Shown: piece by piece, positions 2,991 to 24,820 of the stretch | Layout: each line of letters starts with the position of its first letter | Numbering within the stretch: the stretch's first letter is position 1 | DNA from: Candidatus Electrothrix yaqonensis | GTDB lineage: Bacteria > Desulfobacterota > Desulfobulbia > Desulfobulbales > Desulfobulbaceae | Direction of reading: 5' to 3' | NCBI GenBank assembly: GCA_047651235.1 | Contig: CP178758.1 | Location: forward strand, 870,001 to 902,000 | DNA: 32,000 nucleotides | Made by a program: the position numbers and the translations under genes | The notes under the pieces: generated by a model | Databases searched by the model: none | Told to the model about the DNA's origin: nothing | Seen by the model: only the letters and a program-made list of their open reading frames with translations

Positions 2991-3187
2991 ATATGGTTAT
3001 ACTCAACATTGGAAGGACTTGAGCTTTCCGATCTCGACACCCACCGTTAAAACAGTGGGCTATTCTCTGTCGCCCCACCGGGGCTGCGCGAAAACAGCGT
3101 CCCGGAGGGACTGCCGAAAATAGCCCGGTCTTTCAAGGCCGGGACAGGAATTATTCCGATGGAAAGCATACCTGCTGGAGGAGTAAC

Positions 3188-3496
3188 ATGAGCAAAAAAA
3201 GAAAGGTTGCCGATCTGCCTGATTTTGATCCGGCAAAATTCCTGAAAGACGATGAAGATATTGCCGCTTACCTCACGGTCGTGATCGGAGAAAATGACCC
3301 CTCCCTCTTGGCTGCTGCTTTGGGGGATATTGCACGAGCCAAAGGAATGACGGAACTATCTCAATCCACAGGAATAACCCGCGAAGCTTTGTATAAAACA
3401 CTTAGGCCGAATGCCAAGCCGCGATTTGACACAATCAACCGAGTATGTGCAGCCCTTGGAGTTCGTTTGGTAGCCCAACCTGCTCATTCTCAGTGA
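3188..3496 (+). CDS. addiction-module antidote protein, HigA/XRE HTH family (orphan)
   Basis: 102 aa with a GGAGGA SD upstream. The pattern DFDPAKFLKDDEDIAAYL...MTELSQSTGITREALYKTLRPNAKPRFDTINRVCAALG is typical of HigA-type antidote proteins. No toxin ORF lies in the 197 bp upstream. Confidence 0.8.
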   Translation: MSKKRKVADLPDFDPAKFLKDDEDIAAYLTVVIGENDPSLLAAALGDIARAKGMTELSQSTGITREALYKTLRPNAKPRFDTINRVCAALGVRLVAQPAHSQ

Positions 3497-3498
3497 AT

Positions 3499-3605
3499 TA
3501 TAGCTGGAGCAACATAATTTGAATATGCCCACAAGAGGCATAAGTTTTGCCTTCACGCCTTTCAGATAGCTGATCCTGTATTCAGTTTATACTGCTCCAG
3601 CTATA
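3499..3605 (-). mobile_element. 107-bp MITE, copy A (inverted relative to copies B and C)
   Basis: Exact reverse complement of 4079-4185 and 18245-18351. It has a perfect 13-bp terminal inverted repeat TATAGCTGGAGCA that extends imperfectly to about 31 bp. It starts 2 nt after the higA-like stop and cuts the 3' end of the IS200 tnpA. Confidence 0.8.
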
Positions 3606-3946
3606 TCGACACAATAGCCGCGTGCCCAAAAACGATTACCCCAGTACGGTTTTTTCTTCAATTTGCGAAACTTGTTGAATACACGAATCGCGGTTCTGCC
3701 TTTAATGATGCCCATATAATCCGAAATCGACAGTTTCGGAGGAATCATCACGATAATATGAACATGATCTTTTTGAACATTCAGCTCAATCACTTCACAC
3801 TTTTTCTGCTCGCTGAATGCGCAGGTACAATTGAACACCTCCTGTCCGACTTCACCCTCAAGTATTCTTAATCGATACTTGGGAACCCAGACGATATGGT
3901 ACTGGCAATGCCAAATTGTATGTGATAGTTTTTTAAATCGACTCAT
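3587..3946 (-). CDS. tnpA: IS200/IS605 family Y1 transposase TnpA, 3'-truncated
   Basis: MSRFKKLSHTIWHCQYHIVWVPKYR..., HUH motif in DHVHIIV, and the RGY Tyr region. The ORF ends RGYCVD-IAGAV*, with its last ~28 nt inside the MITE at 3499-3605. About 30 residues that normally follow RGYxVxTVG are therefore missing. Confidence 0.8.
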   Translation of the reverse strand: MSRFKKLSHTIWHCQYHIVWVPKYRLRILEGEVGQEVFNCTCAFSEQKKCEVIELNVQKDHVHIIVMIPPKLSISDYMGIIKGRTAIRVFNKFRKLKKKPYWGNRFWARGYCVDIAGAV

Positions 3947-4035
3947 AATTTGCTCCTGATATTGTTGTGGGGACAACACGTCATGGAGCTTATTATGAGC
4001 TTTTGAGGTTCAACCGGCAAAGCCGCTGAACTCTG

Positions 4036-4056
4036 ACCACCCCCAGAGGGGGTGGT
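4036..4056. repeat. perfect 9-bp stem hairpin (ACCACCCCC-aga-GGGGGTGGT), probable IS200 left-end hairpin
   Basis: Read directly from the sequence. It lies ~90 nt upstream of tnpA on the tnpA strand, where IS200-type elements carry a subterminal hairpin. Confidence 0.5.
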
Positions 4057-4078
4057 TTTCTACTACGAAATAAAGTTG

Positions 4079-4185
4079 TATAGCTGGAGCAGTATAAACT
4101 GAATACAGGATCAGCTATCTGAAAGGCGTGAAGGCAAAACTTATGCCTCTTGTGGGCATATTCAAATTATGTTGCTCCAGCTATA
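4079..4185 (+). mobile_element. 107-bp MITE, copy B
   Basis: Identical to 18245-18351. It sits in the left arm of IS701-like copy 1, and about 50 bp of IS sequence present in copy 2 (about 8350-8403) are missing next to it. Confidence 0.8.
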
Positions 4186-4232
4186 TCAAAAAAATACCCG
4201 TCAATCGCCCTGATTATAACTTTATTCTTTTT

Positions 4233-5221
4233 ATGAACGCTCCCAGCCCCGAAAAAAGAAGTCCCCATGACAAATTCTTTGAGTTGACCGGCATCGCCCG
4301 GCAACTTACGTCTTTTCACGAAAGATATCATCATTTTTTTAAGAGACATACGGTAAGTTTGTCAGATAAAGCATTCCAATACTTGAAAGGTTTATTCCAG
4401 GCTGACAAAAAAACATGGAACGTATGGAGGAAAAGGTTCCGGGCGTTAAATATGAGCCCCTCCAGTATTTTCTTTCCGAATCGAACTGGGATTGGCGTCC
4501 TGTAAACAACCAAGTAGCTAAAGATGCGGATAACATTTTTGGAGGAAAGGAAGATAGCGCTCTTTTTATTGATGAATCCGGGATACCCAAAAAGGGTAAA
4601 ATGTCTGTTGGGGTTTCTCGTCAATGGTGCGGGCAGCTTGGTAAAACCGACAACTGTCAAGTAGTTCTACTTTGGCGATCATAAACATAACTAGCTTATT
4701 TTTATTAAGTATTTAAAAACCCCTGTTTTTAGTATTATTAATATTATTAAATAGTTAATGGTATGGTCACCAAAGTAGAATTAGTTGTCAGACGTGAGGT
4801 TAAGTCCCCGAAAAAAATTAAATATAGCCTAAGTAATGCGGAAAGTAACACGTCAACAAGACGACTTGCATATATGCAAGCTCAACGATATTGGGTTGAA
4901 CGGCCATTTCAGGATGCAAAAAATGAATGTGGAATGGGTGATTATCAGGCTCGGGGATGGCTGGCTTGGCATCATCATATGACTATGGTCATGATGGCCA
5001 TGTTGTTTATGGTCGAGCAACGATTATACCATCAAGTCGGTGTCCCGTTATTGAGTTGCGCTGATATAACAACATTACTCAAGTCAATTCTTCCACGTCG
5101 AGATGTAAACGAAGATGAAGTTATAAGACAGCTTCGTCAACGGCATGAAAAGAGGCAAGCTTCGATTGATTTCGCATATGAGAAACAACCGAATTGCAAA
5201 TTATTACCACAGCCTTTGTGA
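4233..5221 (+). pseudogene. IS701 family DDE transposase, disrupted (frameshift plus internal deletion)
   Basis: N-terminal MNAPSPEKRS...; then MERMEEKVPGVKYEPLQYFLSESNWDW...ALFIDESGIPKKG...SRQWCGQLGKTDNCQ in another frame. The C-terminal part RYWVERPFQDAKNECGMGDYQARGWLAWHHH resumes after the nested element. The segment carrying the middle catalytic Asp is missing. Confidence 0.7.
4665..4780. mobile_element. ~115-bp AT-rich MITE with IS701-like termini, nested in copy 1
   Basis: Termini TTCTACTTTGGCGATCAT ... ATGGTCACCAAAGTAGAA form an inverted repeat (2 mismatches in 18). They resemble the IS ends TTCTACTTTGTCAACCAT (8279) and CCAAAGTAGAA (9885, 5235). Confidence 0.55.
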
Positions 5222-5235
5222 GTGCCAAAGTAGAA

Positions 5236-5435
5236 TTAATCGTCTCGTCCATAGGCGAACCCGCCGTGTGATTTTTCAGCACTGCGAAAAATGCGTCATC
5301 AAGGCCGATGGCGGTCGAGAGGACGGATTTACGTCCCCCGCCCGGTTTGCGAATTCGTTCTTCTTTTTCAGACAGGCTGCCGTAAAAATTACGCATTCGC
5401 GTTTCTATCTCAGGAGAATATGTTTTTATCTTCAT
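5236..5435 (-). pseudogene. ISAzo13-type transposase, N-terminal fragment cut by IS701-like copy 1
   Basis: MKIKTYSPEIETRMRNFYGSLSEKEERIRKPGGGRKSVLS...LKNHTAGSPMDE matches the N-terminal GGGRK...GDPM region of ISAzo13-family transposases as I recall it. Homology stops at the IS right end (5235). Confidence 0.55.
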
Positions 5436-8278: not shown

Positions 8279-9885
8279 TTCTACTTTGTCAACCATAACC
8301 TTTTGATCTATTTGTAAAAACTTCTTACAATATCCGGATAAAGTTGTATCTTTCATTAGGAAAATTTTATCGCTTTTTGATCAAGCTAGCACCTGATAAC
8401 AGCTATCAAAAAAATACCCGTCAATCGCCCTGATTATAACTTTATTCTTTTTATGAACGCTCCCAGCCCCGAAAAAAGAAGTCCCCATGACAAATTCTTT
8501 GAGTTGACCGGCATCGCCCGGCAACTTACGTCTTTTCACGAAAGATATCATCATTTTTTTAAGAGACATACGGTAAGTTTGTCAGATAAAGCATTCCAAT
8601 ACTTGAAAGGTTTATTCCAGTCTGACAAAAAAACATGGAACGTATGGAGGAAAAGGTTCCGGGCGTTAAATATGAGCCCCTCCAGTATTTTCTTTCCGAA
8701 TCGAACTGGGATTGGCGTCCTGTAAACAACCACGTAGCTAAAGATGCGGATAACATTTTTGGAGGAAAGGAAGATAGCGCTCTTTTTATTGATGAATCCG
8801 GGATACCCAAAAAGGGTAAAATGTCTGTTGGGGTTTCTCGTCAATGGTGCGGGCAGCTTGGTAAAACCGACAACTGTCAAGTAGTAGTGTTTGCAACTTT
8901 GGGATATGGTCGCTTTTCAACGCCGATCGACTGTCGGCTGTATTTACCGAAAAGCTGGACGGATGACAAGGAACGTTGTCTTAAGGCTAAGATTCCCGCC
9001 GACAAAATTGTTTTCAAAACAAAGCATGAACAGGCTCTTGACATGGTCTTCCATGCGCGAAAGAATGGCGTTCGTTTTAACTGGGTGGGTTGTGATGGTT
9101 TTTACGGGAAGAATTCTCAATTTCTTCGGAAACTTGATAATAACGATGAAAAGTTCATGGCAGATGTTCATAAAGACCAAATAATTTATAATTTATATTG
9201 AAGATCCCAACCCTGTCGTTCCAAAAGCAAAATCGAACAAAGGGAAACGCCCGAGCAAGCTCGAAGCACAAAAAGAAGGCATACGTGTTGATAAATGGGT
9301 GATGCAACAACTTAATAATGCATGGAAACGGGTGAAAGTTCGAAATACGACCAAAGGCAAACTCATTGTGGATATTCTGCATAGGGAAGTGGCTATGGGA
9401 CGGTAAAGAGGCTGAAGCAAGAAAATGGCATTTAGTTGTCAGACATGAGGTTAAGTCCCCGAAAAAAATTAAATATAGCCTAAGTAATGCGGAAAGTAAC
9501 ACGTCAACAAGACGACTTGCATATATGCAAGCTCAACGATATTGGGTTGAACGGCCATTTCAGGATGCAAAAAATGAATGTGGAATGGGTGATTATCAGG
9601 CTCGGGGATGGCTGGCTTGGCATCATCATATGACTATGGTCATGATGGCCATGTTGTTTATGGTCGAGCAACGATTATACCATCAAGTCGGTGTCCCGTT
9701 ATTGAGTTGCGCTGATATAACAACATTACTCAAGTCAATTTTCCACGTCGAGATGTAAACGAAGATGAAGTTATAAGACAGCTTTGTCAACGGCATGAAA
9801 AGAGGCAAGCTTCGATTGATTTCGCATATGAGAAACAACGGAATTGCAAATTATTACCACAGCCTTTGTGAGTGCCAAAGTAGAA
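8279..9885 (+). mobile_element. IS701-like element, copy 2 (full length ~1.6 kb, transposase frameshifted)
   Basis: IRL TTCTACTTTGTCAACCAT at 8279 and IRR ...GCCAAAGTAGAA ending at 9885. It carries an IS701-type DDE transposase reading frame. Confidence 0.8.
8453..9871 (+). pseudogene. IS701 family DDE transposase, multiple frameshifts
   Basis: The reading frame must switch at the A7 run near 8626-8632, near 9190, near 9400, and at a 1-nt deletion near 9740 relative to copy 1. DDE candidates are FIDESG, WVGCDGFYG and YWVERPF. Confidence 0.75.
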
Positions 9886-9887
9886 GT

Positions 9888-9965
9888 AAAGAAAATATGA
9901 AAATTCAATTCGACGAGTTTCTGCCGAAGTGGAATTATGCCGCTGTTCCGTCAGGACGGCTTTGA
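9888..9965 (+). pseudogene. possible C-terminal remnant of an ISAzo13-type transposase
   Basis: KENMKIQFDEFLPKWNYAAVPSGRL* carries the F-x3-WNY C-terminal signature that I associate with ISAzo13-family transposases. It is squeezed between two IS ends. Confidence 0.35.
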
Positions 9966-10075
9966 ATCCCGTAGTTATTAGACCTCCTGCAAAACTTGGT
10001 GATTTGACAGAAACGGCGGATGCTGATATTTTTTCGGTCACTTTTTCGATTATCAACCCCGGAGGTCTGAAAATC

Positions 10076-10303
10076 ATGCTCACATTCGAAAAACTCTCCC
10101 GCCGCCCTGAAACATTCCGCCGTCTGACCGGTGTCGATATTGATCTTTTCAACGGAATGACGGAAAAGATCCGCCCTTTATGGGAAGAGCGGAGAGATAA
10201 TTTTGAAAAGGGCGGGAGAAAGCACAACTTGGAAGGAGCTGAAAACCACCTTCTCGCCATGCTCCTGCGAAGTCTTCGCTTATCTATTACCGTTGTTACG
10301 TGA
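10076..10303 (+). CDS. IS5-family transposase, N-terminal HTH part (orfA)
   Basis: GGAGG SD, then MLTFEKLSRRPETFRRLTGVDIDLFNGMTEKIRPLWEE...HLLAMLL (HTH_Tnp_4-like). The frame ends where LIYYRCYVTYEFLSFFF continues in another frame. Confidence 0.65.
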   Translation: MLTFEKLSRRPETFRRLTGVDIDLFNGMTEKIRPLWEERRDNFEKGGRKHNLEGAENHLLAMLLRSLRLSITVVT

Positions 10304-10944
10304 CATATGAGTTCCTCAGTTTTTTCTTCGATTCCGATGAGACGACGGTGATGCGCGCAGTGAAACGGATGGAAAAAATCGCGGTACGGGTGATTCATAT
10401 TGAAAAAAAGCGTGAAATCACACGGGAAGATGCGGAATACCTGATAATCGATGCGACGGAGCAGCCGGTTCAGCGCCTGAAGAAAGGACAGAAGAAGTAT
10501 TACAGCGGAAAGAAGGGAAAACACACGCTCGGAACGCAGTTTACCGCCGGTCCCGACGGACGGATTTTTTCGGTTTCGGCGTCGTATCCCGGAAGTGTTC
10601 ATGATTTCAGGATATATAAGGAACAGAAGGGGCGGGAGCGTTTTCACGGTATTCCGAAGAAGGCCGACAGCGGATATCAGGGAATCGCGGCATATGACCG
10701 GCGCGCCGAAATTCCCTTTAAAAAGCCCCGGAACGGTGAACTGACCGCCGAACAGAAGGCATATAATCTTGATTTATCGAAAAAACGTATCAAAGTTGAG
10801 CATGTCATAAGAGAGGTGAAGGTATTTAAAATCATGTCGGAAACATACCGGAACAGGCTTAAAGGCCATAATATAAAGAAAAATATCATATCCGGCATAG
10901 TGAATATGAAGGTTGCGGCACGGAAAATGAAGAAAGCTGCCTGA
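10300..10944 (+). CDS. IS5-family DDE_Tnp_4 transposase catalytic part (orfB)
   Basis: YLIIDATEQPVQR, KKADSGYQG and KKRIKVEHVIREVKVFKI give a D, D, E triad in the Harbinger/DDE_Tnp_4 pattern. The true coding frame opens near 10270 and needs a frameshift from orfA, either programmed or a mutation. Confidence 0.75.
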   Translation: MTYEFLSFFFDSDETTVMRAVKRMEKIAVRVIHIEKKREITREDAEYLIIDATEQPVQRLKKGQKKYYSGKKGKHTLGTQFTAGPDGRIFSVSASYPGSVHDFRIYKEQKGRERFHGIPKKADSGYQGIAAYDRRAEIPFKKPRNGELTAEQKAYNLDLSKKRIKVEHVIREVKVFKIMSETYRNRLKGHNIKKNIISGIVNMKVAARKMKKAA

Positions 10945-11032
10945 AGCGGAAAATTTTGAAAAAGGGAAAAACCTCACCGCCTGAGAAGAACAGGCAGTTC
11001 TGCAGGAGGTCTAAAGCAACATAGGAATTACA

Positions 11033-11756: not shown

Positions 11757-14700
11757 ATGTCTTCCGCAGAAAATAATCCGAGACGCATAGCTGTTGTTGT
11801 AAACTCTCTGACCGGAGACGAACTGAAAGCTGGCAATAGAGATGTGTCACGCATCTACAGCCTTCTTACAAACCATGAACTCGGGGCATGTTCAATTGAT
11901 AGCCCTAAGCCACTCCATGAATGTAAGAGTTGCAATGAATTAAGGGGGAGTGTTGCACCGGTAATTGAAAACTGGCATTTGACTGACCAGTTTATATTTT
12001 ATTTCTCAGGACATGGAACAGTCCTAAATGGAAGGTATTGTTTGCAATTAGGTGCTTCTTCTGAAATTCTTCCTTTTGACTGCTTAATGATTGACCTAGA
12101 AGTTAAAGGAGTACAACGGGCTATTATCATTCTTGATGCTTGTCATAGTGGTGCCGCAATACAGGGAAGCAAGAATTCTGATATCCTTGCCTCAATCAAT
12201 AAGGGGACTATTCCAAAAGGAATTGCTATCATAGCCTCATCCAGGGCCAGTCAAACAAGTCATGAAATGCCGGATGGCTCGGCGAGTGTTTTTACAGACC
12301 TTTTATGCAACGGTATTGAAACAGGCTTAGATCTGCAATGTACTGCTAACGGGCTGATCTCTGTCGATGACATTGTCTCTTATATCAGCAATAAGCTGAA
12401 AGCAGATAAAAAGTATTCATCATTTCTGCAACAGCCTGTATTCAAGATTGATAAAGCGGAGCGACCTATTTGGCTTGCAAAGAACAAAAGCGGAAAAACC
12501 TCAAAAAATAAAACAACACGCATTCAACAGAACATCAGAACACCAGAGGAACTGAAATTACTCTACGAGAAGACGGTCTATACAGAACATCCCTGCTTGG
12601 GAGCTTCATTGGATGATTTAGATTGGTCATTAGTAGAGAGTTATGCAACGGAACTTGGTGAAGATAAAGGCGACATGCAAGATAGAGAGATTGTGCTCAC
12701 AAAGCTCAAATTTTTCTCTCCCCTTGAAAATAATCCTACATTACATCAGTCAGCTGTACTGTGCTTTGCTATGTATCCAGAGAGGATGTATTCTCAGGCT
12801 AAATCAAATTTTGTCCTTGGAGATCAAGGAGAGGAATCCTTTGAACGACATGAAGTGAAAGGGCCGCTGAGTATTCAGATAGAGGAATTAATAAGAAAGA
12901 CCAAGCAGTCTCTCCGCAAAACGTCATCAATAGCGGATAGCGGAAAACGAGTAGAACAGTACGAGATTGATCAGAATCTAATACGAGAGCTTATCTCTAA
13001 TGCAGTTACTCATAGAGATTACCGATCCAACGGTGTCGTTAAAGTAACCGTTAATTCAGATTATATAGAAATTCAGAGTCCTGGTTCCTTTCCAGGCCAC
13101 TTGTCATGGGCAGAACTTCTCAAGTGTTCAGCTTATCCCGTTTCCAAACCTGTAAACGGAGCAATCTCTCAGTATTTGGCTCAGTTATTGGTATTTGAGG
13201 GAATAGGGCGTGGTTTTCGTATAATTCACAATTACATAACCGAGCATGGCAAGGAGAGCATTAAGTTTAAAGAACTACCTGGCCCGACAACTTCGGTGCG
13301 AATATTACGCCCTCGTGATCGAAATTTTGCTCATGGAGTGGTTACTGCGGCAGGTGAACAAAATATTGTTCAAGGAGCAGGTTCGCTAGGCAGGCAGGTC
13401 AATATTGCTCAAGATGTGAAAGGAGATGGCAATATATTCTCTGGCAGAGCAGAAAATATAACCTATCATCATTATCCCCGTCCTTCTGTTCCCCAACTCT
13501 TTCCGCCGCAAGACGACATCTTTCTTCATCGCGAGGAGGAACTCACTTGGCTGTATGAGCACCTGCATCCTGATAGGGTGGTTGCCATCTGTGGGCCGGG
13601 AGGGATGGGAAAGAGTGCCTTAGCCGCCCATGCGGTGCGTAAGTTACCCGCTGACCGCTTCTCGGACGGTATAGTCTTTCATTCCTTTTATCATCAGCCG
13701 GATACCACAATGGCCCTCCAGACTATTGCTCAAGCTTTTGGTATTGCAGCGGAGGCAGACCTAGAGCAGCTTGTGCGTAATGCCTTGATTGGTAAGCAAG
13801 CTTTGCTCATCCTTGACGGTACAGAAGAGGCTGAGGATCTTCGGGCCGTGTTAGATCTGCGAGGTGGCTGTGGCGTGCTCATCACCACTAGGAAAAAGAG
13901 TGACTCTGGATCACTTCGCCTAGAGTTGTCGCCCCTGTCTGATGACCAAGCTGAAGACATGTTGCGTGCTTGGGGCGAAATCAGTGACAACCAGCAAACC
14001 ATAGAACAGCTCTGTAGTTTGTTGGGTGGTTGGCCCATAGCACTGCGCCTAGCCGGGAACTATTTACGTAGCACCGGCGAGTCTGCAACGGACTACCTAC
14101 GCTGGTTACAGGAGGAGCCGTTCAAAGAGCTGGGGGATAGTGAGGAGCATCAGCGTGACAATGCAACCCTACTGCTCAAGCAGAGCACGGCCCAGGTGGG
14201 GGAGGATGCCCGCCTTGTGCTGGAACTGGCAGGCACCTCGGCTTATGATCTGCTGTCCGTTGCGCCCATGACCGTTCTGCTGGAGGACGATGAACTCCGC
14301 ACCCGCAAGGCCGTGAACGAGCTGGTCAATTACGGCCTGCTGGAACGCCGGGGAGAACGCCTGCATATAGGCCATGCCCTGATCCATGAGTACGCAGCCC
14401 GGAACCTGCCCCTGAGCAGGAAGGCACTGGCGCGGGTGGCCAGCTATTATATAGCTTGGTGCAGGGAACAGAGTGCTGCCGGCGTACCGGGTTATGCCCT
14501 GCTGGATGATGAGCGAACACATTGCCTGCGCCTGATACGTGCCTGTTTGGACAGTGGGCTGTGGCAGGAGGTGAAAGGGTTGGTTGAAGCAATCTCGCAG
14601 TACCTTGACCGGCAGGGTTGGTGGACAGAGCGACTGACCGCCTTGGAGATGCTCCTGACTGCGACCCGCAAGGCTGGCGAACGCATGGATGAAGGAGAAT

Positions 14701-15350
14701 GTCTGAATAACTTGGGCTACACCTGTTGGCGACGCGGGGAGTTTGAGCAGGCTCTTGCATGGCACGAACAAAGCCTGCCCATAATCCGTGAGCTGAGAGA
14801 CCGACAAGGAGAAGGCGTACTTCTGAATGACATTGGCAATATTTATAGAGAACAAGGCAAGTATGAGCAGGCCCTGCAATATTATCAGCAGAGTTTGAGC
14901 ATCCGGCAGGAAGTCGATGACCGGGAGGGGGCAGGGGTCGCACTAAACAATATTGGTCAGCTTTATTATTACCAAGGCAACTACGAGCAAGCCTTGCAGT
15001 ATTATGAGCAATGTTTACCCGTCATGCGAGAAGCAGGCGATAAAATCGGGGAAGGGACAACCCTGAACAACATTGCCACTATCCGCCGTACCCGAGGTGA
15101 GCCGAGCAAGGCTCTGGAGTATCATCAACAAGCCTTGACTATCAGCCGTGAGCTTGGTGACCGGGCCGAAGAAGCACAAAGCTGCTTAAATATCGGTCTT
15201 ACCTATCATGACTTGGACGATCTAGTTCAGGCCGAAGAGCACATTGCCTTGGCTGTGGAGATCGCAGAGGCCATCGGATATCCTGCTTTAGAGGAATGGC
15301 GGGAGGAGTTGGGGAAGGTTCGAGAAAAGCGACAAGACAAAATGATATAA
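11757..15350 (+). CDS. caspase (C14) / AlbA_2-HATPase_c_4-like / NB-ARC STAND NTPase / TPR fusion protein
   Basis: Caspase dyad FYFSGHG (His86, 12012-12014) and ILDACHSG (Cys129, 12141-12143). Middle module with LISNAVTHRDY, IEIQSPG and FEGIGRGFRI. Walker A GPGGMGKS (13593-13616), Walker B LLILDG (Asp687, 13815-13817), LITTRKK, GGWPIALRLAG. Five 40-aa TPR units at the C-terminus. Confidence 0.9.
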   Translation: MSSAENNPRRIAVVVNSLTGDELKAGNRDVSRIYSLLTNHELGACSIDSPKPLHECKSCNELRGSVAPVIENWHLTDQFIFYFSGHGTVLNGRYCLQLGASSEILPFDCLMIDLEVKGVQRAIIILDACHSGAAIQGSKNSDILASINKGTIPKGIAIIASSRASQTSHEMPDGSASVFTDLLCNGIETGLDLQCTANGLISVDDIVSYISNKLKADKKYSSFLQQPVFKIDKAERPIWLAKNKSGKTSKNKTTRIQQNIRTPEELKLLYEKTVYTEHPCLGASLDDLDWSLVESYATELGEDKGDMQDREIVLTKLKFFSPLENNPTLHQSAVLCFAMYPERMYSQAKSNFVLGDQGEESFERHEVKGPLSIQIEELIRKTKQSLRKTSSIADSGKRVEQYEIDQNLIRELISNAVTHRDYRSNGVVKVTVNSDYIEIQSPGSFPGHLSWAELLKCSAYPVSKPVNGAISQYLAQLLVFEGIGRGFRIIHNYITEHGKESIKFKELPGPTTSVRILRPRDRNFAHGVVTAAGEQNIVQGAGSLGRQVNIAQDVKGDGNIFSGRAENITYHHYPRPSVPQLFPPQDDIFLHREEELTWLYEHLHPDRVVAICGPGGMGKSALAAHAVRKLPADRFSDGIVFHSFYHQPDTTMALQTIAQAFGIAAEADLEQLVRNALIGKQALLILDGTEEAEDLRAVLDLRGGCGVLITTRKKSDSGSLRLELSPLSDDQAEDMLRAWGEISDNQQTIEQLCSLLGGWPIALRLAGNYLRSTGESATDYLRWLQEEPFKELGDSEEHQRDNATLLLKQSTAQVGEDARLVLELAGTSAYDLLSVAPMTVLLEDDELRTRKAVNELVNYGLLERRGERLHIGHALIHEYAARNLPLSRKALARVASYYIAWCREQSAAGVPGYALLDDERTHCLRLIRACLDSGLWQEVKGLVEAISQYLDRQGWWTERLTALEMLLTATRKAGERMDEGECLNNLGYTCWRRGEFEQALAWHEQSLPIIRELRDRQGEGVLLNDIGNIYREQGKYEQALQYYQQSLSIRQEVDDREGAGVALNNIGQLYYYQGNYEQALQYYEQCLPVMREAGDKIGEGTTLNNIATIRRTRGEPSKALEYHQQALTISRELGDRAEEAQSCLNIGLTYHDLDDLVQAEEHIALAVEIAEAIGYPALEEWREELGKVREKRQDKMI
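14697..15296 (+). repeat. tandem coding repeat: five ~120-nt TPR units
   Basis: Units begin ECLNNLGYTCW, VLLNDIGNIY, VALNNIGQLYY, TTLNNIATIR and QSCLNIGLTYH, each with a xYEQALQYYxQ-type core and a RExxDRxGEG linker. Confidence 0.7.
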
Positions 15351-15447: not shown

Positions 15448-16293
15448 TCATCGCCTTGTTTCGTCTCTGATCGCCTCAATTTCATCCTTTGATAAACCTG
15501 TCAGGGTTGAGATTAACTGGATATCAAGCCCTTGCTTCAGCCCGTTGCGTACAATTTCTCTCCCCCTTGCAGCCTTTCCCTCTTCATAATAGGTGTCCAT
15601 GGAGCTTTTCAGATCCCAGTAATCTTTTAAACTCTCCTGATAATCCTGTTGTTCCAAGGGATCAAACTTGGCCAGCTCAGCAATCTCAATCAGTCGTTTA
15701 AAAATGCCTGCGGCGAGTTCTTTGGGATGATCTTGGAGGCGATGAAGATTTTTAAAGGCATAGAGCCAGCGGTCATAATCTGAGCGCAGCTCCTCAAGGG
15801 CCTTTTTGAATTTAGGAATCTCCAGATAGATAAAGGTCAATTTATCGTAAAAGACCTGCCTGGTCTCCTGTTCCATCAATTTTACCCGATGATGAAGCTT
15901 GTCCTGATCAGCATCATCAAAACAGAAATCCAGGATGCCGATGGTGTAGACGCTCTTCAGCTCGTATTTCCAGTCTTTACCCTTTGCGGCCTGTTCCTGC
16001 ACGGCAAAGGTGGAATAGTAGAGACTGCGATCTTTGAAGAATTTCTGTTTGACCCGTTGTATCTCAACGATAAATTTCTCGCCCTGTTCATTGGTGCAGT
16101 AGAGGTCAAAGACGGCGTTTCGGTCCCTTGTTGTTTTGCCCAGGCGTTCACCGTTGAGGTAGGTGAGGTGCTTTATCTGTTCTTTATCATCCAGGAGTTC
16201 GTTTAAGAAAGCAATCAGCAGGTCCTTGTTGGGTTCTTCGCCGAAGACCTTTTTGAAGCCGTAATCTGTGAACAGATTGATATAGCGATCCAT
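15448..16293 (-). CDS. Rpn family recombination-promoting nuclease / PD-(D/E)XK putative transposase
   Basis: MDRYINLFTDYGFKKVFGEEPNKDLLIAFLNELL...AVFDLYCTNEQGEKFIVEIQRVKQ...IGILDF is the classic TIGR01784/Rpn-type N-terminus and D...E-x-Q/K nuclease core. Confidence 0.85.
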   Translation of the reverse strand: MDRYINLFTDYGFKKVFGEEPNKDLLIAFLNELLDDKEQIKHLTYLNGERLGKTTRDRNAVFDLYCTNEQGEKFIVEIQRVKQKFFKDRSLYYSTFAVQEQAAKGKDWKYELKSVYTIGILDFCFDDADQDKLHHRVKLMEQETRQVFYDKLTFIYLEIPKFKKALEELRSDYDRWLYAFKNLHRLQDHPKELAAGIFKRLIEIAELAKFDPLEQQDYQESLKDYWDLKSSMDTYYEEGKAARGREIVRNGLKQGLDIQLISTLTGLSKDEIEAIRDETRR

Positions 16294-18049: not shown

Positions 18050-18244
18050 TTAATAAAACTCCCAGGCCGTGACGGCCAGCAGCAGGCTCAGCAGCATCGG
18101 CCAGTAGGAGAGTTTGAAGAATATATCCTTCTCTCCAAAGAGACCGTGCCCTTTGCCGAATGAGACCAGGAATCTCTTGGTCGGCGTCATGATCACAGCA
18201 AAATAGATAACAAAAAAGAAATATTCAAGATAAAACAGCTGTCC
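18050..18244 (-). pseudogene. detached C-terminal fragment (M3-M4) of the Cache-pLGIC gene
   Basis: GQLFYLEYFFFVIYFAVIMTPTKRF...YWPMLLSLLLAVTAWEFY* has no start codon of its own. It is in frame with 18352-20269 once the MITE plus one TA is removed. Confidence 0.7.
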
Positions 18245-18351
18245 TATAGCTGGAGCAGTATAAACTGAATACAGGATCAGCTATCTGAAAGGCGTGAAGG
18301 CAAAACTTATGCCTCTTGTGGGCATATTCAAATTATGTTGCTCCAGCTATA
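18245..18351 (+). mobile_element. 107-bp MITE, copy C, inserted in the pLGIC gene
   Basis: Identical to 4079-4185 and flanked by TA. It supplies the TAG stop (18347-18349) of the truncated upstream ORF. Confidence 0.85.
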
Positions 18352-20269
18352 TGGAAATACTGCGTCGTATTGCCAGATGAGAAAAAACAACCACAAAAAA
18401 CAGAGAAGAACAGATACCCAGCACCTTGCTGATATCAGTGTCAGAAGGGAGAAGAATGATAAAAAACAGAATGATACTTACCACGATCAGCGGTGTAAGG
18501 TTGGAAATGAAGGCATTGATAAAAACTCTTCGTATACCGATATGATAGGATAATACCGGCAGGTCATTATGTTGGTAACCCTTTGTTGTAAAAAAATCTG
18601 TTTTTTTATCTCTTTTTGAAAAGGCAAAAAACGTTTTGGTCACTTCCCAGCCGGGAAGATCGATTTTTTCGTTCAGTCCGGGAAAGAGTACTGATGCCCC
18701 GAAATGTTCGCTGTCAAAATCAGGCACAAAAACTACCCGATCACTTTTTCGGGAGAACATCTGTATGGTCAGCTCCTCGATTTCCAGAGGATACTTTGCA
18801 GAGGAGATATAGGCCGGTATGGTGGCATGAAAGCTGGACAGAACGACTTTTTCATCCTTCGTCTCCCTGATGTCCAGACTGCCGATAGTCTGTTGCTTGG
18901 CCGGAAAAAAATGAATATTGCTCAGGTCATCATGAAAGTCGGCCGGATACCGCCGCCATATATGTCCGGACATGGACAGCTCGTTTGCAGTGGAAAAATC
19001 CAGTGTTTCAATATAAATCCCCGTAGGAATAAAAATTGGCCTGTCAGGATCTTTTTCCTGATAACGCTGCGTATAGTACACTGTTTGTTTTTCCACAGCC
19101 TGCTTGTTTTTCAGCTCCCTGGCCTCGGGATATGGTTTTTTATAGTACGTCAAAGAGGTTTTCCAGATTATGCCGATACCGGCTGCCAGGATCAGCGATA
19201 GCGCAGCAACAAAACGCCAGGCAACTTCTTTGGATAGCACTCTGTTTTCCTGACACCTGATCTGGATCAGAATCAGCAGGGTGGTCAGAAAAACAACCGC
19301 GCAGCAGACCATCAGAATGAGTCGATGCCGTAATTTATCTCTATTGATGACGATATCGTTTTTCATAAAGGTATTCTGCACAGACCAGCCGGAACTCGGC
19401 ACAGGCTCGGCAATCAGCCAGGACGCCTCACCGGTTGTCGTGCTTGTATGATCCAGAACCGCGCTCTCACCGAGCTTCGCCTTTTCTGCGAGTTCCAGTC
19501 TGTTGGAATCGTCTTTTATTTTCGCAATCTGCTGCAGCGTCTTTCCCGAAACAACATATTCTTTCTTCGGATGATAAAGATATGTCCCTGCAGCAGTTGT
19601 CAGACCGCCGAATCCTTTCCCGGAGCTTTCCACAGTCTTCTGCATGACAGTATTGAAATATTCCAGAGAAAGGTCTACAGCGACAACACCGGCAGGTTTC
19701 TTCTCCGCGCCGTCCTGCTCCGGCTGATAAAACAGGGCGGAATAGGTTACCATGCGGACATTGCGGGCTGTATCCCAATACGGTTCACTCCAGCTGTTTT
19801 TTTTCTCCTGAACAGGCGCCAGATACCAGCAGGAAAAGTAATCATCAATTTCATCATTCTTAACAGCCGTTACCGCAGCATCCTCCTGTCCGTTTTTCCC
19901 ATGCCAGCCTGCAGAATATAATTTCATTTCCGATGTATAGGCAGGAGGTTGAAAGACAATTCCTGCCCCGGCAAAGGCTGAATTCTCTTTGAGTACTTTG
20001 CGCAGTTTCTTGCCAGCTACTTCTTTTACAGCCTTATCCGTCTTTTTTTGAGATTTCAGATCAGCTGTTATCTCTGCAGCAACAGATTCAGCAGAATCCA
20101 TGACCTGCCGGGCAAGAGTATCCAGCTCCTGTGCCGCTCTCAGGGTTATTGCCTGAAAATTATTTTTTGATTTTCTATACACCTTTTCTTTATAAAAAAC
20201 GTAATCATATATCATAAAGACCATGCCGGACAGACTTAACAGACAAACGAAAATTAAGAATCTACGCAT
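18347..20269 (-). CDS. dCache sensor fused to a pentameric ligand-gated ion channel (pLGIC/GLIC-like), truncated after M2 by a MITE
   Basis: ATG at 20269 with AGGAG 7 nt upstream. N-terminal TM, then Cache motifs (CWYLAPVQEKKNSWSEPYWDTARNVRMVTYSALF, AGVVAVDLSLEYF, GFGGLTTAAGTYLYHP). Two TMs, then a GLIC-like ECD (PIFIPTGIYIETLDF, AKYPLEIEELTIQMFS) and M1-M2 (LSYHIGIRRVFINAFISNLTPLIVV...). Confidence 0.7.
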   Translation of the reverse strand: MRRFLIFVCLLSLSGMVFMIYDYVFYKEKVYRKSKNNFQAITLRAAQELDTLARQVMDSAESVAAEITADLKSQKKTDKAVKEVAGKKLRKVLKENSAFAGAGIVFQPPAYTSEMKLYSAGWHGKNGQEDAAVTAVKNDEIDDYFSCWYLAPVQEKKNSWSEPYWDTARNVRMVTYSALFYQPEQDGAEKKPAGVVAVDLSLEYFNTVMQKTVESSGKGFGGLTTAAGTYLYHPKKEYVVSGKTLQQIAKIKDDSNRLELAEKAKLGESAVLDHTSTTTGEASWLIAEPVPSSGWSVQNTFMKNDIVINRDKLRHRLILMVCCAVVFLTTLLILIQIRCQENRVLSKEVAWRFVAALSLILAAGIGIIWKTSLTYYKKPYPEARELKNKQAVEKQTVYYTQRYQEKDPDRPIFIPTGIYIETLDFSTANELSMSGHIWRRYPADFHDDLSNIHFFPAKQQTIGSLDIRETKDEKVVLSSFHATIPAYISSAKYPLEIEELTIQMFSRKSDRVVFVPDFDSEHFGASVLFPGLNEKIDLPGWEVTKTFFAFSKRDKKTDFFTTKGYQHNDLPVLSYHIGIRRVFINAFISNLTPLIVVSIILFFIILLPSDTDISKVLGICSSLFFVVVFSHLAIRRSISI

Positions 20270-20401
20270 TGCATTGCTCCTGAGTATATTTTTAAACAAA
20301 ATAGTCCTTTAACTTTAGTTTCCTTTCTTCTGTAAAAAGAAGAATTGTAGACTGTGCGCGATGTCCTGCTGCAAACAGAAAAATATAAAAAACAAGACAG
20401 G

Positions 20402-23588: not shown

Positions 23589-24314
23589 TCAGTGATTATG
23601 GGCTGCCCGCCCGTGTATCTGTTCTTCTTTCATTATCCGGATAATCCGTTCATCAAGGCAGGAACGGAGAAAAACGTTCATTTGCTGCTGGTCGCCGCTT
23701 TCATAAAAAGTGAGCATCAGCTGATTGAATTCCAGTTGCCGCTTCGCCGGAAGGTTAATCGCCGGGTAGCCGTGAGTCAGCAGGAAACCGTTCATCATAA
23801 ACCGGCCCGTACGTTTATTGACATCATAGAAAAACTGACATCGGGCCATAGTCAGAAAAAAATGAATGGCCCGGTCATAGACATCAGCAATTTCTTCGGC
23901 CTGTTCGAGCATTTTGTTAAACAGATCCGTCAGCTGCTCTGCCGGAGGCGGCATGTATTCAGTTCCCGCAATGGTTACGCCACCGGAGCGGAACTTTCCC
24001 CATTCCAAGGCATCTTCTTTGGCCGCAATCCCATGCAGCGTACAGGCTATCTCGGCACTAACAGTAAACCGGTCGTTCTTCACCAAGGCAAAGACTTCCT
24101 GCCAGGCATTGGACTGATTCAGGACAATCTGCTGATCACTCAACTTATGACCGCCAACGGTTATGCCGTCCAGCAGGGTCTGTACTTCCGGCAGGGTATA
24201 GTTGAGCCCCTCAAGATTAACCGCATCGCAAACCAATTCGGATAATTGCCGCTTGGCCAGCATCATGGCCTTGGCCCGGTTCGGCGGCATGTGCCAGTGG
24301 GAATCTATCATCAA
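23589..24314 (-). CDS. Fic/DOC family protein with degenerate active-site motif
   Basis: Fic-fold pattern (NLEGLNYTLPEVQTLLDG..., LHGIAAKEDALEWGKFRSGGVTIAG). The HPFxDGNGRxxR motif reads QFFYDVNKRTGR, so His is replaced by Gln and both Gly are lost. Confidence 0.75.
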   Translation of the reverse strand: MMIDSHWHMPPNRAKAMMLAKRQLSELVCDAVNLEGLNYTLPEVQTLLDGITVGGHKLSDQQIVLNQSNAWQEVFALVKNDRFTVSAEIACTLHGIAAKEDALEWGKFRSGGVTIAGTEYMPPPAEQLTDLFNKMLEQAEEIADVYDRAIHFFLTMARCQFFYDVNKRTGRFMMNGFLLTHGYPAINLPAKRQLEFNQLMLTFYESGDQQQMNVFLRSCLDERIIRIMKEEQIHGRAAHNH

Positions 24315-24328
24315 CCTGAAAAATTCCG

Positions 24329-24820
24329 TCAGTTAAATTTCCACTTCTTATATTGCAGGCTGACAGGACTTTTTGTAAAATCCGAACGGGTCATCTGTCC
24401 ATCAACGGAAAAATGACTGACGGTTCCGTCATCCGCGCAGAGCCATACCTCCACAGCTCCTTTGGCGAGATACAGTTGTATTTTTTCTTCCATTTCTTCC
24501 CGGCTGTTGGACGGGCTGACGATTTCAATGCATATTTCCGGTGCTTCTTCATACGGGGTTGCCTCGCCGTTCCGCTGCATAAATTCTTCTGAAGCCCAGG
24601 CGACATCAGCAACCTTCACGCCGTCATCAGTCTTGATGGAGCATTCGACGATCACACGCCCAGCGGGAAGTTTCCTGCGGAGGTAATAAACAGCCTCTGA
24701 CTGGAGAATGCCGTGATGATTGCTGGCCGGGCTCATCAGAATTTTCCCCCATTTATTCAGCTCAATCTTAAAGGGGAGATTCTGAAGATACGGATTCGCT
24801 ATGACGCTTGCCCAGTCCAT
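24329..24820 (-). CDS. Uma2 family (DUF820) PD-(D/E)XK endonuclease
   Basis: VADVAWASEEF...APEICIEIVSPSNSREEMEEKIQLYLAKGAVEVWL is the Uma2 signature (D...E-I-x-S-P-S...K...Y...G...E-x-W). Confidence 0.85.
   Translation of the reverse strand: MDWASVIANPYLQNLPFKIELNKWGKILMSPASNHHGILQSEAVYYLRRKLPAGRVIVECSIKTDDGVKVADVAWASEEFMQRNGEATPYEEAPEICIEIVSPSNSREEMEEKIQLYLAKGAVEVWLCADDGTVSHFSVDGQMTRSDFTKSPVSLQYKKWKFN

Follow-up and report, generated by a model that had tools for sequence, protein, structure and literature searches.

In the genome of the cable bacterium Candidatus Electrothrix yaqonensis, a gene for a predicted sensor-fused channel is split by a short mobile element, and the gene is most likely a null allele. 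The locus lies in a stretch of 32,000 nucleotides (nt) of contig CP178758.1 (assembly GCA_047651235.1, positions 870,001 to 902,000 of the forward strand), which is the window referred to below and whose numbering is used for its features. It is proposed that a 103-nt non-autonomous miniature inverted-repeat transposable element (MITE) inserted at a TA dinucleotide within codon 640 of a 704-codon gene, and that the TA was duplicated in the process. The leading TAG of the MITE would halt translation just past M2, the second of four channel helices, and with the M3-M4 segment left without a start codon the four-helix membrane domain could not form. The MITE itself would have been moved in cut-and-paste fashion, in trans, by a DDE transposase of the IS630/Tc1-mariner type encoded elsewhere in the genome. 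This account as a whole, that of a recent MITE knockout of a gene for a Cache-fused pentameric ligand-gated ion channel (pLGIC), is considered very probably correct. What the analysis shows is the insertion with its boundaries, a net increase of 105 nt and the truncation, together with the homology of the protein after repair and its fold. The features concerned are the following.

18350..20269, minus strand: 5' part of the predicted dCache-pLGIC gene, codons 1-640, comprising the signal-anchor helix, dCache sensor, two membrane helices, beta-sandwich extracellular domain, M1 and M2 (from the open reading frame, sequence, MCP-like_PDC_1 match, structure model and fold matches)
18350..18351: TA, upstream copy of the duplicated target, the last two bases of ATA = Ile640 (from the sequence)
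18247..18349, minus strand: MITE copy C, a non-coding element of 103 nt with 100% identity to copies A and B
18247-18271 and 18325-18349: terminal inverted repeats of MITE copy C
18245..18246: TA, downstream copy of the duplicated target (from the sequence; the repaired site has a single TA)
18050..18244, minus strand: orphaned 3' part, 64 codons and TAA, comprising M3, the M3-M4 loop and M4 (from translation, homologue C-termini and model helices)
3501..3603, plus strand: MITE copy A, with TA at 3499-3500 and 3604-3605
4081..4183, minus strand: MITE copy B, with TA at 4079-4080 and 4184-4185

The split gene and its repaired form

The minus-strand open reading frame (ORF) 18347-20269 begins with the ATG at 20269; this start is preceded by AGGAG at a distance of 7 nt and lines up with the N-termini of homologues (an alternative TTG lies further upstream at 20299). 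The ORF ends as ...HLAIRRSISI, and its stop codon, the TAG at 18349-18347, coincides with the opening triplet of the 103-nt element 18247-18349. On the same strand beyond the element, positions 18244-18050 translate as GQLFYLEYFFF...TAWEFY, that is 64 codons followed by a stop. There is no start codon at the 5' end of this fragment, the first in-frame one being a GTG at 18196, 16 codons in; internal stops and frameshifts are absent and the conserved residues of the family are retained. The truncated 640-amino-acid (aa) product, which still comprises sensor, extracellular domain, M1 and M2 but neither M3 nor M4, is already recorded as a called gene under the name “hypothetical protein”.

Removal of 105 nt, the element plus one TA, joins the two parts in frame as ...SIS-I-GQLFY... 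and gives a protein of 704 aa; the repaired site becomes ATT TCC ATA GGA with a single TA, and the reconstructed empty site reads ATTTCCATAGGACAGCTG. Deletions of 101, 103 or 107 nt all shift the frame. The frame cannot by itself fix the boundaries, because a deletion of 99 nt also preserves it but inserts two residues (YI) that are present in no homologue; the homologues decide for 105 nt, since the repaired 704-aa protein aligns with homologues of 697-725 aa, the syntenic orthologue among them, without a gap at the join. From the net gain of 105 nt and this gap-free join it follows, as the parsimonious reading of the sequence, that copy C measures 103 nt, has symmetrical ends and duplicated 2 bp (TA) of its target. 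An earlier note on this DNA, made from the letters alone and called here the original prediction, had stated that the ORF stops inside the MITE, that the frame continues at 18050-18244 with no start codon at its head, that removal of 105 bp restores the frame and that the TA target was duplicated, and for copy C all of this was borne out. The repaired length of about 714 aa given there had to be corrected: it is 704 aa from the ATG at 20269, and 714 aa is reached only from the TTG at 20299.

A search of 5.8 billion proteins returned 16 relatives, the full-length ones measuring 694-789 aa. The join is spanned by 13 of them and all read through it without a gap (SHLAIRRSI[SA]IGE[LI]FYLEYFFF). 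The 64-codon fragment by itself is matched from end to end by the C-terminal 64-65 residues of 12 homologues (identity 37-52%, E 6e-21 to 2e-13), the alignments closing on the last residue of the homologues. It can be said that neither a natural end of the orthologues at ...RRSISI nor a want of homology in the downstream 64 codons, either of which would have spoken against the original prediction, was found: every full-length homologue runs on past the join, and the fragment is matched end to end. An exhaustive profile search of 1.84 billion representatives yielded 1,775 proteins matching the channel half at E <= 1e-3; nearly all of the best 150 of these 1,775 reach profile positions 327-332 of 332, and these matches end at, or a few residues from, the C-terminus of the protein itself. 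A natural two-gene arrangement is ruled out by the homologues.

The best homologue, P0001, is 47% identical and shows no indel at the insertion site. Its gene has the same neighbours as the window gene, a GXGXG/Fer4/Pyr_redox oxidoreductase upstream and prfC downstream, and on sequence and gene order P0001 is judged to be the positional (syntenic) orthologue. The prfC of the window groups at the 90% level with Candidatus Electrothrix gigas, communis, aestuarii and others, in agreement with an Electrothrix-like cable bacterium as host.

The predicted receptor channel

The N-terminal half of the protein matches the Pfam family MCP-like_PDC_1 with 53.9 bits (cut-off 27), and dCache_1 scores 28.1, under its cut-off of 45. 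Profile matches to dCache sensors in the PDB reach 7e-16, and a Foldseek comparison of the first half with the PDB returned dCache domains of histidine kinases and chemoreceptors (E ~1e-12, template modelling (TM) scores 0.70-0.75). For the channel half, the family profile matched PDB entries of GLIC chimeras (E 7e-4 to 4e-3) with the YP[LF][ED] loop aligned, which is the only sequence link to pLGICs. The family has a Pro-loop Y-P-L-E that varies little or not at all and aligns to Y-P-F-D of GLIC; the T-P-L of M1 does not vary.

The AlphaFold model built from a 17-sequence alignment (predicted local distance difference test (pLDDT) 75, predicted TM score (pTM) 0.63) starts with a helix at the N-terminus, which is followed by a dCache fold, two long helices (310-341 and 347-374), another short one, the beta-sandwich at 412-581 and finally four membrane helices at 583-605, 613-637, 640-668 and 678-703. 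Foldseek matched the second half to whole GLIC chains in the PDB over ~330 columns (E ~1e-10, TM 0.72-0.74); subunits of GABA-A receptors were matched too. The protein is accordingly modelled as a periplasmic dCache sensor, two membrane helices and a divergent pentameric ligand-gated channel (Pro-loop receptor). Both the receptor channel with a four-helix domain and the position of the break at the M2/M3 junction had been foreseen in the original prediction; the first is supported by the structure model and the GLIC fold matches, and the model places the break after residue 640 (640|641), between helices 613-637 and 640-668.

Fusions of Cache and pLGIC modules have been described since 2004, in Methanosarcina, Cytophaga and Microbulbifer (Tasneem et al. 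2004; PMC549065), and the order is common to those MCP-N/Cache-pLGIC proteins and to the present one, namely a periplasmic sensor, then a beta-sandwich ligand-binding domain, then a four-helix pore. In contrast to the known pLGICs with N-terminal sensors, this family is too divergent for the Pfam Neur_chan models, and its model has two membrane helices between the Cache and the channel modules. DeCLIC, a solved pLGIC with an N-terminal domain, likewise carries its sensor domain N-terminal of the channel. That domain of DeCLIC is not known to be a Cache domain. We know of no characterised member of the Cache-fused family reported here.

More distant full-length homologues of the Cache-fused channel were also observed at loci L009/L010 (5001-7085), L011 (5001-7151) and L012 (8001-10133). 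These proteins, P0012, P0007 and P0011, are 38-39% identical and are encoded directly downstream, on the same strand, of genes of extracellular contractile injection systems (eCIS; CIS_TMP tape measure, AAA ATPase and eCIS_core). The arrangement of P0012 was found at 22 further places, and both the window gene and P0001 stand outside an eCIS context. In one subclade of the family the gene thus closes contractile-injection-system operons, and this may point to a role of such channels that is as yet unexplored.

The element and its surroundings

The 107-nt unit of TA, the 103-nt element and TA at 18245-18351 is repeated at 3499-3605 and 4079-4185 with 100% identity and in both orientations, the count of three referring to the 32-kb window. 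A 37-nt core has three matches in the window, where shuffles give an expectation of 0, and the terminal 11-mer is matched there by the six MITE ends only. The 25-nt ends (TAGCTGGAGCA...TGCTCCAGCTA) are inverted repeats that match at 21 of 25 positions, or over 27 nt at 85% when the flanking TA is counted. The element carries stop codons in each of the six frames and has a GC content of 42%, and as single-stranded DNA it is calculated to fold into one long hairpin (-18.8 kcal/mol, z = -4.4). To judge from its size, inverted-repeat ends, TA duplication, lack of coding capacity and identical dispersed copies, the element is a MITE of the TA-duplicating kind.

Neither a 44-nt core nor the 25-nt terminal-repeat consensus gave any match (0) in GTDB representative genomes, JGI metagenomes and IMG/VR; blastn of the element against plasmids and phages returned no match, and Rfam none at the element. 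A looser pattern made of the ends alone had four metagenome matches, which were set aside as chance or unrelated hairpins on account of their unrelated interiors. Terminator-like hairpins at the locus numbered nine (2.2 expected from shuffles) and are scattered through coding sequence, with a single weak one inside the MITE. In the literature on mobile elements in cable bacteria nothing relevant was found.

The stretch 3499-5239 of the window is a nest of mobile elements that holds copy A, an IS200-type tnpA, the inverted copy B and an internally deleted element of the IS701 family. Copy A lies 2 nt past the stop of a higA-like antidote gene (3188-3496) and replaces the 3' end of tnpA (3587-3979, minus strand); the missing tail is absent from the other side of the copy, which suggests deletion or recombination between MITE copies. 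The IS701-family element begins at the TA flanking copy B, so that copy B abuts its left end. The two IS701-family (DDE_5) copies of the window, 4184-5239 and 8404-9889, are 99% identical over their overlap, and both look defective: ~430 bp are missing from the interior of the first, and the transposase of the second is divided between frames. The second is adjoined by an IS5-family element (DDE_Tnp_4, 9978-11014) with 19-nt inverted ends TTAGACCTCCTGCAAAACT and a transposase split into the ORFs 9929-10303 and 10300-10944.

By likeness, the closest analogues of the MITE are judged to be RUP and Correia/NEMIS. RUP of Streptococcus pneumoniae is 107 bp long, targets TA, is tied to IS630-Spn1 by matching termini and often inactivates transposase genes of insertion sequences (PMC2229807). 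It shares with the present element the length of ~107 bp, the terminal inverted repeats, the insertion at TA, the stops in six frames and highly conserved copies suggestive of recent mobility. RUP also tends to land in insertion sequences; here copy A truncates the IS200 tnpA and copy B abuts the IS701-family element. However, the two have no sequence similarity and their hosts belong to different phyla; RUP has a parent insertion sequence recognised by its termini, whereas none was found for this MITE, and RUP is described as intergenic, whereas copy C sits inside a cellular gene. Correia/NEMIS elements of Neisseria are ~107 or ~155 bp long and have inverted repeats of ~24 bp and a terminal TA with target duplication, and they give long-hairpin transcripts (PMC2229807). 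Size, length of the inverted repeats, TA termini and the hairpin are the points of likeness. The sequence is unrelated, and Correia elements carry sites for integration host factor (IHF) and promoter motifs, whereas the promoter scan of the present locus stood at background level (3 found, 4.7 expected).

Other features of the window stand apart from the split gene. An Acido-Lenti-1 RNA is matched in Rfam at 3040-3085 (plus strand, 37.6 bits with a gathering threshold of 37) in the interval from ligA to the higA-like gene. At 11757-15350 (plus strand) lies the gene of a 1,197-aa protein that combines caspase (Peptidase_C14), NB-ARC/NACHT and TPR domains, as is typical of STAND/NLR-like proteins for defence or cell death in bacteria; a PDDEXK_2 (Rpn-family) gene follows at 15448-16293. 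At 23589-24820 (minus strand) Fic/DOC-family and Uma2-family (putative restriction endonuclease) genes are found between glutamate-synthase-like genes; in the orthologous locus L001 their place is taken by DUF4760, PIN and small ORFs, and variable accessory genes seem to have a hotspot in this intergenic slot.

Weighing of the account and its meaning

Several points weigh against the account given above. No near-identical intact allele was found: the closest full-length homologue is only 47% identical, and because of this the empty site is reconstructed from the protein alignment and not observed, so that the orthologue comparison proposed in the original prediction succeeded at the protein level and brought no intact allele. 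The 90% cluster has just one further member, P0033 (191 aa), which spans the Cache domain alone and not the junction. TA flanks every copy of the element, and with no empty site for copies A and B the duplication is demonstrated for copy C alone; at A and B it is indistinguishable from a TA that belongs to the element. The Pfam models Neur_chan_LBD and Neur_chan_memb gave no match in 10 family members scanned at E <= 10, for which reason the channel assignment rests on the fold and a weak profile match. The loss of function is deduced from the truncation, and, like it, the recency and the identity of the transposase are what we infer. Finally, within the 32-kb window neither a transposase of the IS630 type nor a longer element sharing the MITE's termini is present.

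The last point bears on the choice of mobiliser. The IS630/Tc1-mariner family characteristically targets and duplicates TA, and it is for this reason, and by analogy, that a transposase of this type is proposed to have moved the element. The strongest of the other explanations, unlikely as it is, holds that a TA-duplicating MITE was moved by another family, for example an IS5-group enzyme (which makes 2-3-bp duplications) or one not yet described. It is favoured by the lack of an IS630 gene in the window, by the lack of any relative of the element or its termini in the searched collections, which leaves it with no matched parent, and by the IS5-family element nearby. Against it, the termini of that IS5-family element (TTAGACCTCC...) are unrelated to the MITE, and inverted repeats of ~25 nt combined with a duplication of strictly 2 bp (TA) are the hallmark of IS630/Tc1-mariner elements and their MITEs, as in RUP and IS630-Spn1 (PMC2229807). 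As parents of the MITE, the IS5-family element was rejected for its termini and the IS701-family copies of the window because they have nothing in common with it.

It is improbable that the gene is still alive, either with its two halves forming a working channel or with precise excision restoring it as a reversible switch. The 3' fragment is fully intact, the identical copies mean that the MITE family may still be mobile, and exact removal of the element with one TA restores the gene perfectly. Nevertheless, the M3-M4 fragment begins with neither a start codon nor a ribosome-binding site, and a start at the GTG at 18196 would cost 16 residues of M3. After cut-and-paste excision, elements of the Tc1/IS630 type usually leave a footprint behind. 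Neither version gains support from the analysis, and the gene is most likely a null allele.

As to timing, the three identical copies and the undecayed stranded 3' fragment are the grounds for regarding the insertion as recent and the family as recently or currently active. The sequence evidence suggests a recent insertion and fits it, and gives no date; the recent inactivation claimed in the original prediction thus agrees with the identical copies and the undecayed fragment, and the word “recent” stays an interpretation. The window protein deviates at 9 of 141 conserved columns, and its three closest intact relatives at 10-12 of ~145; two of the nine departures (E642Q and I657V) fall in the 64-codon fragment, too few to indicate relaxed selection. 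Codon 642, two after the insertion site, is CAG for Gln, where all 13 homologues covering the column have Glu, and Gln642 could be a lineage-specific or a post-insertion change.

There is very little probability that the element is instead a hairpin repeat of the REPIN or PATE sort whose mobility depends on a Y1 (HUH) tyrosine transposase, namely the IS200-like gene between copies A and B. Such a reading would draw on the inverted orientation of the two copies, which lie 473 nt apart on either side of a Y1_Tnp gene, and on the folding of the MITE as one long hairpin. The Y1 protein, however, passes the NCBI IS200 equivalog model (128 bits, cut-off 55) and fails that for REP-associated transposases (RAYT; 31.6, cut-off 80), and copy A truncates it at profile position 114 of 126, before the presumed region of the catalytic tyrosine. 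In IS200 TnpA the catalytic tyrosine lies in the C-terminal region past this truncation point. Y1 elements insert beside a 4-5-nt target, with neither duplication nor terminal inverted repeats, whereas the copies found here share only TA in their flanks, have inverted-repeat ends and, at copy C, show a net gain of 105 = 103 + 2. Membership in the REPIN/RAYT group was set aside, the flanked Y1 gene being a truncated IS200 equivalog and copy C showing a TA duplication.

An assembly artefact, in which a repeat was misplaced into the gene, is the most far-fetched explanation: a multi-copy exact repeat can mislead assemblers and one genome only carries the element, but the window belongs to a 3.74-Mb contig, a frame-exact insertion with duplication of a pre-existing TA is a signature of transposition, and the junction of gene and element is present in an independent assembly. 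In the Logan short-read assembly of run SRR31704081 the gene runs into the element and the sequence ends 27 nt inside it, so the left junction exists in reads and not only as a product of assembly; the end within the element is as expected, because the element is a repeat. For the right-hand junction, a look-up in the independent assembly by means of the 48-aa residual ORF found none recorded.

The case is a textbook-clean and ordinary MITE knockout of a gene whose architecture is known but poorly annotated. Insertional inactivation by MITEs and Cache-pLGIC fusions are both established, and the general understanding is unchanged. What is added concerns the gene, its family and the element. The annotated 640-aa hypothetical protein would be a truncated pseudogene whose true product is a 704-aa Cache-fused pentameric channel, and the family of such channels is large (1,775 representatives) and unannotated. 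A MITE family absent from all searched collections is now documented with its TA preference, exact boundaries and likely recent activity, in a group of bacteria whose genomes are hard to close, partly owing to repeats. It is a long shot that an active, lineage-restricted MITE family in a multicellular cable bacterium acts, by heterogeneous or reversible insertion, as an on/off channel switch; if true, excision restoring ATT TCC ATA GGA would switch a chemosensory channel on and off in filaments or populations. The receptor channel appears to be dispensable in this strain, though the locus is kept between the same neighbours in a related genome.

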